The notes beneath the pieces are model-generated. The model saw only the letters and a program-made list of their open reading frames with translations. It was not told where the DNA came from and did not search any database. 64,000 bases of DNA from Escherichia coli (GTDB taxonomy: Bacteria; Pseudomonadota; Gammaproteobacteria; Enterobacterales; Enterobacteriaceae), in the NCBI RefSeq assembly GCF_003334305.1, contig NZ_QOWS01000009.1; one strand, given 5' to 3'. Below are positions 7,852 to 22,311 of the stretch, one piece after another. Positions within the stretch are counted from its first letter, which is position 1, and every line of letters begins with the position of its first letter. A program made the translations under genes and the position numbers.

Positions 7852-8676
7852 CTATTTCTTCTCTGTAATTTTTACACTGTTTTCCAACTGCTTGATGCTG
7901 ACCTGCGGGGTCGGCAACTCCTCAGGCATGGTTCCGCCAAGTTCCTGAATGGTTTGCCTCACCTTGCTACCCACGTCAAAGTGTGTGGTATTAGCTTGCT
8001 GTTTTGAATTCACGCCATCCCGCTTGAGTTTTTCTTCTGTTTGGGTAGCTCGAAAGAGATTAGCCGCCAGTTCTGTTGAACCCATATGATCCAGGATCTT
8101 CTGACTCTTTTTCAGCCCCTTCAGTTGGTGGATGGCTTTCTGATCTAATCCACCATACAGCCCCTGGTAACCATGATTCTGAAATATGGCGAAATCAGTA
8201 GCTGTCGCTACCCCAGCTTGCTGTGCTGCCTCAACCAATTGTTTGTTATGTTCTTTCAACTCATTTCTCAGAAACAGACGCTTTTCGTCTTCACGAAGTT
8301 GCTTAAATGCTTCATCGTCAGCAAGCTCCTGCCGTCGGGTCTGGATAGCAAAATAAGTCTGCCCTGCCGCAATGACCGGTTTCGCAGGGTCGCCGTTTTG
8401 TACTACCAGGTAACAGGCATAGCGGGAGAGATGAACATCTTCAAGTTCTCGTTGAGCCCCTGAACCTAATACAACCATTTTGGTGGTTTCAACGAAATGG
8501 TCAGATGCAGCTTGATTGCTGGCTTCGCACGCTTGAGTCGCGCGGGCCAGTACCTTTTGAAAATTGCGCCAGTCCCGATAATCCAGTAACGGTGCCAATT
8601 CTCTAGCTGACCAAAATTCTTGCCCTTCAGTGCCATAATGCCGTATTTCTTCAAAAGGTTGATGATGTTCGTTCAT
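7852..8676 (-). CDS. dinD: DNA damage-inducible protein D
   Basis: ORF 7852-8688; start trimmed to MNEHHQPFEEIRHYGTEGQEFW (274 aa); LexA box upstream. Confidence 0.9.
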   Translation of the reverse strand: MNEHHQPFEEIRHYGTEGQEFWSARELAPLLDYRDWRNFQKVLARATQACEASNQAASDHFVETTKMVVLGSGAQRELEDVHLSRYACYLVVQNGDPAKPVIAAGQTYFAIQTRRQELADDEAFKQLREDEKRLFLRNELKEHNKQLVEAAQQAGVATATDFAIFQNHGYQGLYGGLDQKAIHQLKGLKKSQKILDHMGSTELAANLFRATQTEEKLKRDGVNSKQQANTTHFDVGSKVRQTIQELGGTMPEELPTPQVSIKQLENSVKITEKK

Positions 8677-8719
8677 TGCCCACTCCATGTGATATCGATT
8701 GCAAAGAAAGTAAATCTGT

Positions 8720-8739
8720 AACTGTATTTATATACAGTT
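8720..8739 (-). promoter_or_regulatory. LexA (SOS) box in dinD promoter
   Basis: CTGTATTTATATACAG at 8722-8737 fits CTGT-N8-ACAG consensus, about 45 bp upstream of dinD start. Confidence 0.8.
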
Positions 8740-8828
8740 GTGAGTATCTCACGTTCTCAGTGTGCTGGGCAAAAAAACATCGCAAAATCTGGAGCAGGCA
8801 CGCAAAACAGAATTGAAGTTGCGGGGAA

Positions 8829-8862
8829 GAAAAATGCCGCTCTGTTTGAGTGGGCGGCATTT
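8829..8862 (-). terminator. rho-independent terminator downstream of yicC
   Basis: Minus-strand hairpin ATGCCGC...GCGGCAT followed by T-run, about 35 nt after yicC stop. Confidence 0.6.
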
Positions 8863-8896
8863 GTGAAGGCTGAAAAGTAAGAATTAGTGTTACGAG

Positions 8897-9760
8897 TTAC
8901 TCAATATTCTGAATCTGCTCGCGCATCTGCTCAATCAACACTTTCAGCTCGATGGCGGAGTTTGTCACTTCGGCATTGATAGATTTCGACGCAAGAGTGT
9001 TCGACTCGCGGTTGAATTCCTGCATCATAAAGTCCAGACGACGACCAACGGCTTCTTTTTTCTTCAGAATGTTGTAGGTCTCTTTGACATGCGCTTCCAG
9101 GCGGTCCAGTTCTTCGGCAACGTCAATTCGTTGTGCCAGCAGAACCAGCTCCTGCTCCAGACGGTTGTTTTCCAACTGAACCTGAGCATCTTCCAGCTTC
9201 GCGACCAGACGCTCACGCTGCCATTGCAGGATTTCCGGCATATGGGCGCGGACTTTGACCACTTCGGCGGTGACGCCTTCCAGACGCTGCTCGATCAATG
9301 CTTTCAGCGCCTGACCTTCGGTTTCGCGCGCGACGATAAAGTCGTCCAGCGTACCATCCAACGCCGCGAGAATTTCAGCGGCAATCGCGTCGAGATCCTG
9401 CTCCTGGGCTGCCATCACGCCCGGCCAGCGTAGAATATCAACCGGGTTGATTTCCCCTTCGTCACTCTGCATTTTTACCCAGTTCGCGGCAGTTACCAGC
9501 TGTTTAGCCAGTTTTTCATTGAGGATCAGCTCACCTTGTGCGCTAACATCTGGCTCATAGCGCAGGGTACATTCCACTTTACCGCGCGTCAGGCGAGAAC
9601 GAATACGCTCGCGAACGACAGGTTCAAGGCTACGGAACTGCTCCGGCAGACGAAAGTAAGTTTCCAGATAACGCTGGTTTACCGAGCGCATTTCCCAGGT
9701 TGCGCTCCCCCATTCACCCTTGATTTCACGCCGGGCGTAGGCGGTCATACTGCGGATCAT
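8897..9760 (-). CDS. yicC: UPF0701 protein YicC (YicC-family stress-induced protein)
   Basis: 287-aa ORF MIRSMTAYARREIKGEWGSATWEMRSVNQRYLE...; divergent from rph. Confidence 0.93.
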   Translation of the reverse strand: MIRSMTAYARREIKGEWGSATWEMRSVNQRYLETYFRLPEQFRSLEPVVRERIRSRLTRGKVECTLRYEPDVSAQGELILNEKLAKQLVTAANWVKMQSDEGEINPVDILRWPGVMAAQEQDLDAIAAEILAALDGTLDDFIVARETEGQALKALIEQRLEGVTAEVVKVRAHMPEILQWQRERLVAKLEDAQVQLENNRLEQELVLLAQRIDVAEELDRLEAHVKETYNILKKKEAVGRRLDFMMQEFNRESNTLASKSINAEVTNSAIELKVLIEQMREQIQNIE

Positions 9761-18309: not shown

Positions 18310-19368
18310 GTGGATAAGCCATTTCGAAGAATTTTGCTCATTAAGATGCGTTTTCATGGGGATATGTTATTAACTACTCCCGTCATTAGTTCGCTGAAAA
18401 AAAATTACCCTGACGCAAAAATCGATGTGCTGCTTTATCAGGACACCATCCCGATCCTGTCTGAAAATCCAGAGATTAACGCGCTCTACGGCATAAAAAA
18501 TAAAAAAGCAAAAGCCTCAGAAAAAATTGCCAACTTTTTTCATCTCATCAAGGTATTACGTGCCAATAAGTATGACCTTATCGTCAATCTTACCGATCAA
18601 TGGATGGTTGCTATACTGGTTCGCTTATTAAATGCCCGTGTGAAAATTTCCCAGGATTATCATCATCGGCAGTCTGCTTTTTGGCGTAAAAGTTTCACCC
18701 ATTTGGTGCCGTTGCAGGGTGGAAATGTGGTGGAAAGTAACTTATCCGTGCTGACACCATTGGGACTTGATTCGTTGGTGAAGCAGACAACCATGAGTTA
18801 CCCGCCTGCAAGCTGGAAACGTATGCGTCGCGAACTTGATCACGCTGGTGTTGGACAAAATTATGTGGTTATCCAACCTACGGCGCGGCAAATCTTCAAA
18901 TGCTGGGACAACGCCAAGTTTTCCGCTGTGATTGATGCCTTACATGCTCGTGGTTATGAAGTCGTTCTGACGTCCGGCCCAGATAAAGACGATCTGGCCT
19001 GCGTCAATGAAATTGCGCAGGGATGCCAGACGCCACCAGTAACGGCGCTGGCTGGAAAGGTGACCTTCCCGGAACTTGGTGCGTTAATCGATCATGCGCA
19101 GCTGTTTATTGGCGTTGATTCCGCACCGGCGCATATTGCCGCTGCAGTTAATACGCCGCTGATATCGCTGTTTGGTGCGACAGACCATATTTTCTGGCGT
19201 CCCTGGTCAAATAACATGATTCAATTCTGGGCGGGAGATTACCGGGAAATGCCAACGCGCGATCAGCGTGACCGAAATGAGATGTATCTTTCGGTTATTC
19301 CGGCGGCAGATGTCATTGCTGCTGTCGATAAATTACTGCCCTCCTCCACGACAGGTACGTCGTTATGA
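18310..19368 (+). CDS. waaQ: LPS heptosyltransferase III
   Basis: GT9 heptosyltransferase; ORF begins with GTG at 18310 (RILLIK motif included); a TTG at 18334 is an alternative start. Confidence 0.85.
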   Translation: MDKPFRRILLIKMRFHGDMLLTTPVISSLKKNYPDAKIDVLLYQDTIPILSENPEINALYGIKNKKAKASEKIANFFHLIKVLRANKYDLIVNLTDQWMVAILVRLLNARVKISQDYHHRQSAFWRKSFTHLVPLQGGNVVESNLSVLTPLGLDSLVKQTTMSYPPASWKRMRRELDHAGVGQNYVVIQPTARQIFKCWDNAKFSAVIDALHARGYEVVLTSGPDKDDLACVNEIAQGCQTPPVTALAGKVTFPELGALIDHAQLFIGVDSAPAHIAAAVNTPLISLFGATDHIFWRPWSNNMIQFWAGDYREMPTRDQRDRNEMYLSVIPAADVIAAVDKLLPSSTTGTSL

Positions 19369-21294: not shown

Positions 21295-22311
21295 ATGAGT
21301 GCCCACTATTTTAATCCACAAGAGATGATCAATAAGACAATCATCTTCGATGAAAGGCCAGCGGCGTCAGTGGCATCATCATTCCATGTTGCTTATGGCA
21401 TTGATAAAAACTTTCTTTTTGGTTGTGGTGTTTCAATCACGTCAGTTTTGTTACATAACAACGACGTGAGTTTTGTTTTCCACGTTTTTATTGATGATAT
21501 CCCTGAAGCCGATATCCAGCGTTTAGCCCAATTGGCGAAAAGCTATCGTACCTGTATCCAGATCCATCTAGTAAATTGTGAACGGCTTAAGGCATTACCG
21601 ACGACCAAAAATTGGTCTATTGCCATGTATTTCCGTTTTGTAATTGCAGATTACTTTATTGATCAACAAGATAAGATCCTTTACCTGGATGCTGATATCG
21701 CCTGTCAGGGAAACTTAAAGCCGCTGATAACAATGGATCTTGCCAATAACGTTGCTGCTGTTGTTACTGAACGCGATGCTAACTGGTGGTCGTTACGGGG
21801 TCAAAGTCTGCAGTGTAATGAACTTGAAAAGGGTTACTTTAATTCAGGTGTCCTGTTAATTAATACACTAGCGTGGGCGCAGGAGTCCGTTTCTGCTAAA
21901 GCGATGTCGATGCTTGCTGATAAAGCCATCGTTTCCCGTTTAACCTATATGGATCAAGATATCCTTAATCTTATCCTGTTAGGGAAAGTTAAATTCATTG
22001 ATGCTAAATACAATACGCAATTTAGTTTAAATTATGAATTAAAAAAATCATTTGTTTGTCCAATTAATGATGAAACCGTATTAATTCATTATGTCGGCCC
22101 GACAAAACCCTGGCATTACTGGGCCGGTTATCCAAGTGCGCAACCTTTTATCAAAGCCAAAGAAGCATCGCCCTGGAAAAATGAACCGTTAATGCGGCCA
22201 GTTAACTCAAACTATGCTCGTTATTGCGCCAAGCATAATTTTAAACAAAACAAACCAATTAACGGGATAATGAATTATATTTATTATTTTTATTTAAAGA
22301 TAATAAAATGA
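21295..22311 (+). CDS. waaO: GT8 LPS alpha-1,3-glucosyltransferase (R1-type WaaO)
   Basis: 338-aa GT8 retaining glycosyltransferase; first gene of the AT-rich outer-core block. Confidence 0.75.
   Translation: MSAHYFNPQEMINKTIIFDERPAASVASSFHVAYGIDKNFLFGCGVSITSVLLHNNDVSFVFHVFIDDIPEADIQRLAQLAKSYRTCIQIHLVNCERLKALPTTKNWSIAMYFRFVIADYFIDQQDKILYLDADIACQGNLKPLITMDLANNVAAVVTERDANWWSLRGQSLQCNELEKGYFNSGVLLINTLAWAQESVSAKAMSMLADKAIVSRLTYMDQDILNLILLGKVKFIDAKYNTQFSLNYELKKSFVCPINDETVLIHYVGPTKPWHYWAGYPSAQPFIKAKEASPWKNEPLMRPVNSNYARYCAKHNFKQNKPINGIMNYIYYFYLKIIK

Follow-up and report, generated by a model that had tools for sequence, protein, structure and literature searches.

The LexA operator of dinD and its setting in a chromosomal segment of Escherichia coli

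Does the palindrome lying beside dinD in this stretch of Escherichia coli DNA act as a LexA operator (SOS box), and if so, which transcript does it govern and from what position relative to the promoter? The stretch analysed, referred to here as the window, comprises 64,000 nucleotides of E. coli chromosome (NCBI RefSeq assembly GCF_003334305.1, contig NZ_QOWS01000009.1) with the gene order ligB-yicG-dinD-yicC-rph-pyrE-slmA. The locus is syntenic with E. coli K-12, and several complete E. coli genomes match a 601-base query around the box at 100% identity. In the SOS system, a LexA dimer binds two half-sites and is released through self-cleavage stimulated by RecA-ssDNA; lexA lies outside the window, and a host LexA of matching specificity is taken from the identity of the species. 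A preliminary description had placed a LexA box at 8720-8739, just upstream of dinD, and offered it as a positive control for the reading of regulatory sites. Our analysis indicates that these bases are almost certainly the single, high-affinity LexA operator of chromosomal E. coli dinD.

Sequence and strength of the dinD box

The plus-strand letters at 8720-8739 are AACTGTATTTATATACAGTT, and their reverse complement, AACTGTATATAAATACAGTT, is the sense-strand 20-mer of dinD, which is encoded on the minus strand. A 16-base CTGT-N8-ACAG core (CTGTATTTATATACAG) occupies 8722-8737 with both arms exact, so that the CTG and CAG trinucleotides stand 10 bp apart inside the 16-bp palindrome, and the full site forms a perfect 8+8 inverted repeat with arms AACTGTAT and ATACAGTT around a 4-base centre. 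Compared with the consensus TACTG(TA)5CAGTA, 17 of the 20 positions match, in accordance with the fit to the SOS box consensus that had been proposed for this site.

For scoring, a symmetrised log-odds LexA matrix was derived from the 18 published E. coli K-12 LexA boxes of Table 4 in PMC3009722 with dinD omitted, leaving 17. Under this matrix the dinD box reached 24.7 bits and was the top match in the 64-kb window, followed by matches of 16.4 and 14.1 bits, whilst among 200 first-order Markov sequences of 64 kb the per-sequence maximum averaged 12.1 bits (sd 2.2) and never exceeded 18.0. The preliminary description had named a LexA matrix scan as the check on its reading and a poor score as the result that would speak against it; the box instead scores well above the random maximum. 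When all published boxes were scored leave-one-out, the dinD box ranked 4th of 18, and our own leave-one-out calculation gave it a value resembling the heterology index (HI) of 2.95. Proven LexA sites have an HI below about 12.6-15 (quoted thresholds), and the AT-rich spacer of the dinD box, its score and its HI all fall within the range of such sites. The published HI of dinD is 2.2, the third lowest among the classical SOS genes listed in PMC11228462. The dinD box is thus among the strongest LexA operators of E. coli.

The loose CTGT-N8-ACAG pattern occurs twice in the window against an expectation of 0.58, and 12 of 100 shuffled sequences contained at least two matches, so the pattern alone proves nothing. 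Its other occurrence, at 19168, with a GC-rich spacer and a poor score under the matrix, was taken as chance. The two runners-up in the matrix scan are likewise probably chance matches, each lying inside an open reading frame and within the range of random maxima: TACTGTTTATTATGCCAGTT at 51559-51578 (16.4 bits) falls in a 227-aa frame, and TCCTGTTAATTAATACACTA at 21851-21870 (14.1 bits) in a 338-aa frame. The 227-aa frame adjoins one of 1,616 aa whose translation reads as repetitive and adhesin-like. Inside the spacer between yicC and dinD the next-best matrix match reaches 7.4 bits, and dinD accordingly has a single box.

The site can also be matched directly to a characterized one. The reverse complement of 8717-8741 is the K-12 dinD 25-mer ACAACTGTATATAAATACAGTTACA (PMC3009722, Table 4), with 8720-8739 corresponding to its 20-mer; judged by its letters, the box is therefore the K-12 dinD (pcsA) SOS box itself, beyond mere resemblance. 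RT-qPCR on lexA(Def) and lexA(Ind-) strains confirmed the LexA dependence of dinD (PMC3009722), and a study that includes RNA-seq in lexA3 gives dinD a 9.8-fold induction by AZT and a 12-fold dependence on LexA cleavage (PMC11228462). Ciprofloxacin raises both dinD mRNA and protein (PMC11002266), and a review lists dinD with a known SOS box alongside the consensus used above (PMC6590174). The earlier attribution of the box to a damage-inducible dinD thus agrees with the published K-12 box, at the level of both the 20-mer and the 25-mer, and with its published LexA dependence.

Over the stretch that begins about 120 nt upstream of the ATG and runs to the end of codon 5, a single base distinguishes the window from K-12 MG1655. 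It is located outside both the box and the candidate promoter described below, and regulatory conclusions drawn in K-12 can for this reason be transferred to the window. For the K-12 operator, which has the same letters, the literature documents LexA-dependent, damage-inducible expression, and this would carry over to the window allele; all experimental data on dinD come from K-12, whose DinD protein differs from that of the window in residues 12-85. The operator was already known and adds nothing to SOS biology. Its value here is as the positive control for which it had been put forward, and in that role it works, given that a LexA operator was located to the base from raw letters. This supports the skill of that first reading at spotting regulatory sites in the window.

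The dinD locus, its candidate promoter and competing readings

The dinD coding sequence occupies 7852-8676 on the minus strand (274 aa plus stop) and encodes DNA damage-inducible protein D, as indicated by the open reading frame, the RefSeq annotation of a strain identical over the 601-base query and two family matches. DinD scored 501.6 bits against the NCBIfam equivalog NF008573 (cut-off 242) over residues 1-274, which places it in that family, and Pfam Bro-N matched its N-terminal residues 10-105 (1.1e-10). The open reading frame list contains a longer in-frame start, an ATG at 8688. The RefSeq start at 8676 is favoured because it is preceded, at a distance of 6 nt, by a Shine-Dalgarno GGAG read directly on the minus strand (8686-8683). 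Measured to this ATG, the box ends 43 nt upstream, in non-coding spacer. The preliminary description was correct that the box stands just upstream of dinD but omitted the strand: dinD runs from right to left, and upstream of it means to the right of the gene.

The upstream neighbour, yicC (8897-9760, minus strand, from its open reading frame and annotation), is co-oriented with dinD but outside the SOS unit, and its 3' end lies 157 nt upstream of the box. Downstream of yicC, RNA folding detected a terminator-like hairpin on the minus strand at 8832-8862, in which a 9-bp stem (AAAUGCCGC/GCGGCAUUU) encloses a 13-nt loop and is followed by UUCUU. The hairpin has a folding energy of -12.4 kcal/mol (z = -3.47), and 1 of 200 shuffled sequences folded as well. 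A consensus terminator scan of 8600-8950, which allowed loops of 3-8 nt only, did not recover it. The hairpin probably shields dinD from transcription running on out of yicC.

The standard scan of 8600-8950 returned no canonical sigma-70 promoter. A loose scan of the spacer between yicC and dinD gave as its best -35/-10 pair a candidate at 8743-8772 on the minus strand, consisting of a -35 TTGCCC (8772-8767), an 18-nt spacer and an extended -10 TGaGATACT (TG at 8751-8750, hexamer at 8748-8743). This pair matches 8 of 12 positions plus the extended -10 TG and falls below the threshold of the standard scan. The box, upstream of the dinD start codon, has this weak candidate promoter beside it. 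From this geometry, transcription is predicted to start near 8736, with the operator at about -3 to +17.

Most likely, LexA occupancy blocks RNA polymerase at this weak extended -10 promoter just upstream of the box. In an undamaged cell, a LexA dimer would sit on the two CTGT/ACAG half-sites and keep dinD off; with the operator placed between the probable -10 and the ribosome-binding site, bound LexA would block either initiation by RNA polymerase or promoter clearance. Upon DNA damage, RecA-ssDNA filaments would stimulate LexA self-cleavage, vacating the operator and allowing dinD to be transcribed. We infer this block, rather than read it directly, because the standard scan returned no promoter and the candidate matches at 8/12 positions only.

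A different geometry would place the -10 inside the box itself, as TATAAA (8732-8727) or TATATA (8734-8729) on the minus strand, with LexA competing directly with sigma-70. Overlap of the -10 by the LexA box is common among SOS promoters, and TATAAA, within the AT-rich spacer of the dinD box, matches TATAAT at 5 of 6 positions. These hexamers, however, are not preceded by an acceptable -35 at 15-19 nt upstream, the options at 17 nt being AACGTG and AGAACG, and the resulting pairs fall below even the threshold of the loose scan, in which TTGCCC-18-TGaGATACT is the top candidate. We therefore regard a -10 within the box as unlikely and retain the arrangement in which the operator follows the extended -10.

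Two further readings would remove dinD from the centre of the account. Were the palindrome an AT-rich inverted repeat that arose by chance and regulates nothing, the lack of significant CTGT-N8-ACAG enrichment in the window and the absence of such a box from DinD homologues elsewhere would both be expected. A score of 24.7 bits, where random sequences reach 18.0 at most, is not, nor is the retention of both CTGT/ACAG arms in diverged E. coli haplotypes with changed flanks, and expression data published for lexA mutants, obtained on the identical sequence, already refute this reading, to which we attach practically no probability. Alternatively, the box might serve mainly another transcript, for instance by blocking transcription that reads through from yicC or as the operator of an antisense or divergent RNA, with dinD incidental. 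Some read-through could arrive, as the co-oriented yicC ends 157 nt upstream, but the terminator-like hairpin stands between yicC and the box, the open reading frame list and the standard promoter scan hold no frame or promoter-like site pointing away from it, and the published LexA dependence is that of dinD itself. This makes a role centred on another transcript very improbable, and the site is best regarded as the operator of dinD.

Variation of the operator and of dinD within E. coli

Of 5,426 complete E. coli genomes, at least 3,373, MG1655 among them, carry a 36-mer centred on the dinD box as a single chromosomal copy, and the 114-base dinD promoter region was present in 4,705 genomes of the same set. 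In a diverged haplotype represented by loci L005, L091 and L093, the box carries one spacer substitution (AACTGTATATAAACACAGTT on the dinD strand) and scores 23.0 bits; both CTGT/ACAG arms are intact amid several flank substitutions. This retention of the arms is the only within-species hint of selective constraint that the alignment offers. The five E. coli haplotypes compared share about 98% identity over the entire spacer and yield no useful phylogenetic footprint within the species.

In a subset of genomes the operator is interrupted by ISKox3, an insertion sequence of the ISL3 family whose insertion point falls precisely within the AT-rich 8-bp centre of the dinD LexA box (L003:1671-3014 and L092:1670-3012); in L003 the two duplicated copies stand 1,316 bp apart. 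The insertion parts the two LexA half-sites and cuts dinD off from its promoter. ESY003 has ATTTATAT as its 8-bp target duplication, and 24AR0180, which carries the other operator haplotype, has GTTTATAT; M217 is a further strain with the insertion; finding ISKox3 at the same position in two operator haplotypes implies either two independent insertions or recombination after a single one. The ISKox3 junction was detected in 236 genomes of the same set of 5,426, and our literature search found no report of ISKox3 in the dinD LexA box.

The protein encoded downstream also varies. DinD of the window is 85% identical to K-12 DinD. The two alleles diverge only within residues 12-85, where identity is about 45%, and are nearly identical in residues 1-11 and 86-274 and in the promoter/operator region. 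The diverged cassette corresponds to 8422-8643 of the window on the minus strand (dinD codons 12-85; compare L006:1211-1432) and covers the N-terminal part of the Bro-N domain. Across 5,426 complete E. coli genomes, 2,814 carry the window type of cassette, 1,899 the K-12 type and about 713 neither. Both types resemble homologues at prophage edges, L013 being window-like and L016 K-12-like. As compared at the sequence level, these mosaic alleles suggest recombinational domain swapping.

Gene loss and decay were observed as well. In APEC17 (L004), dinD is fully deleted between yicG and yicC; WCHEC115106 (L002) carries a 603-nt allele with an internal in-frame deletion of residues 156-221; and in GPEC856 (L005), dinD pseudogene fragments annotated as BRO family and DnaD still lie behind a 23-bit LexA box.

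An invariant operator, two ancient and deeply diverged Bro-N versions and the ISKox3 insertions could together depict dinD as a phage-derived SOS gene under ongoing diversifying and disruptive selection and not as a fixed housekeeping member of the regulon. We hold this reading to be possible but rather doubtful; it would hold if the domain swap reflects selection on DinD recognition and if the insertions uncouple dinD from SOS. DinD modulates RecA, and the mosaicism of dinD, together with IS disruption of its operator, could bear on strain differences in this modulation.

Relatives of DinD and comparison with known systems

DinD homologues are widespread at prophage edges and in Streptococcus satellite phages, and one lies on a Klebsiella chromosome (L013, L016, L043, L090 and the viral loci L017-L089). 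Against phage families, DinD gave a strong match to phrog_8036 (2.1e-108) and a weak one to phrog_130, the anti-repressor Ant family. When 80 viral-contig loci with DinD relatives were scanned over the 300 nt upstream, the box was found only in 5, each of which duplicates the E. coli yicC-dinD locus and has the box 44 nt from the start by script count. The distant homologues mostly lie on low G+C contigs or in Gram-positive or Bacteroidota phages, to which a gammaproteobacterial matrix should not apply, and only the enterobacterial negatives are meaningful. Among these, the prophage-edge homologues with 76-86% identity had nothing above 5 bits under the LexA matrix in the 300 nt upstream, and a Klebsiella pneumoniae homologue (75% identity), situated between ibpB and a transporter gene, had no candidate box, its best match of 6.7 bits overlapping the start codon. 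LexA control as a trait of the DinD family was accordingly rejected, the box being confined to the E. coli yicC-dinD locus among the loci examined. Because homologues outside this locus are without such a box, conservation across genera gives no support to the dinD site. This distribution and the phage-family matches suggest that E. coli dinD may be a phage-derived gene that gained LexA control at the yicC-dinD locus.

One viral record requires separate mention. GenBank MG065691.1 ('Campylobacter phage A11a', UNVERIFIED, 174 kb; L007) contains a K-12-like E. coli ligB-to-yicC segment at 120435-126256, in which the yicC-dinD spacer is identical to that of MG1655 and the weak matrix matches of the ligB and yicC regions of the E. 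coli loci recur. Contaminating or misassembled host DNA is the probable source of this segment.

LexA-controlled phage antirepressor genes, such as tum of coliphage 186 and the antirepressors of Gifsy prophages, offer a parallel: in those systems a host LexA box directly controls a phage-type gene, as it does at dinD. Unlike these genes, dinD stands alone on the chromosome, with the window showing no surrounding prophage, and the literature found documents no antirepressor activity of DinD. The prophage-edge DinD homologues examined differ from dinD in turn, being without a gammaproteobacterial LexA box.

The closest comparison is with K-12 dinD (pcsA), which shares with the window the same 20-mer and 25-mer, the same distance to the ATG, the same yicC-dinD-yicG locus and about 120 essentially identical surrounding bases; the protein allele differs (residues 12-85 about 45% identical), whereas the operator does not. 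Some other SOS genes carry tandem LexA boxes, unlike dinD with its one. Beyond dinD, the operators of umuDC, sbmC, recN and tisB/istR-2 have the CTGT-(AT-rich)8-ACAG architecture in common with the dinD box, and under leave-one-out scoring the scores of all five are comparable (24-27 bits, with HI-like values of 0.6-3). The published HI of this group of high-affinity single operators is 1.8-3.5 (PMC11228462), and it is in their target genes that umuDC, sbmC, recN and tisB/istR-2 differ from dinD.
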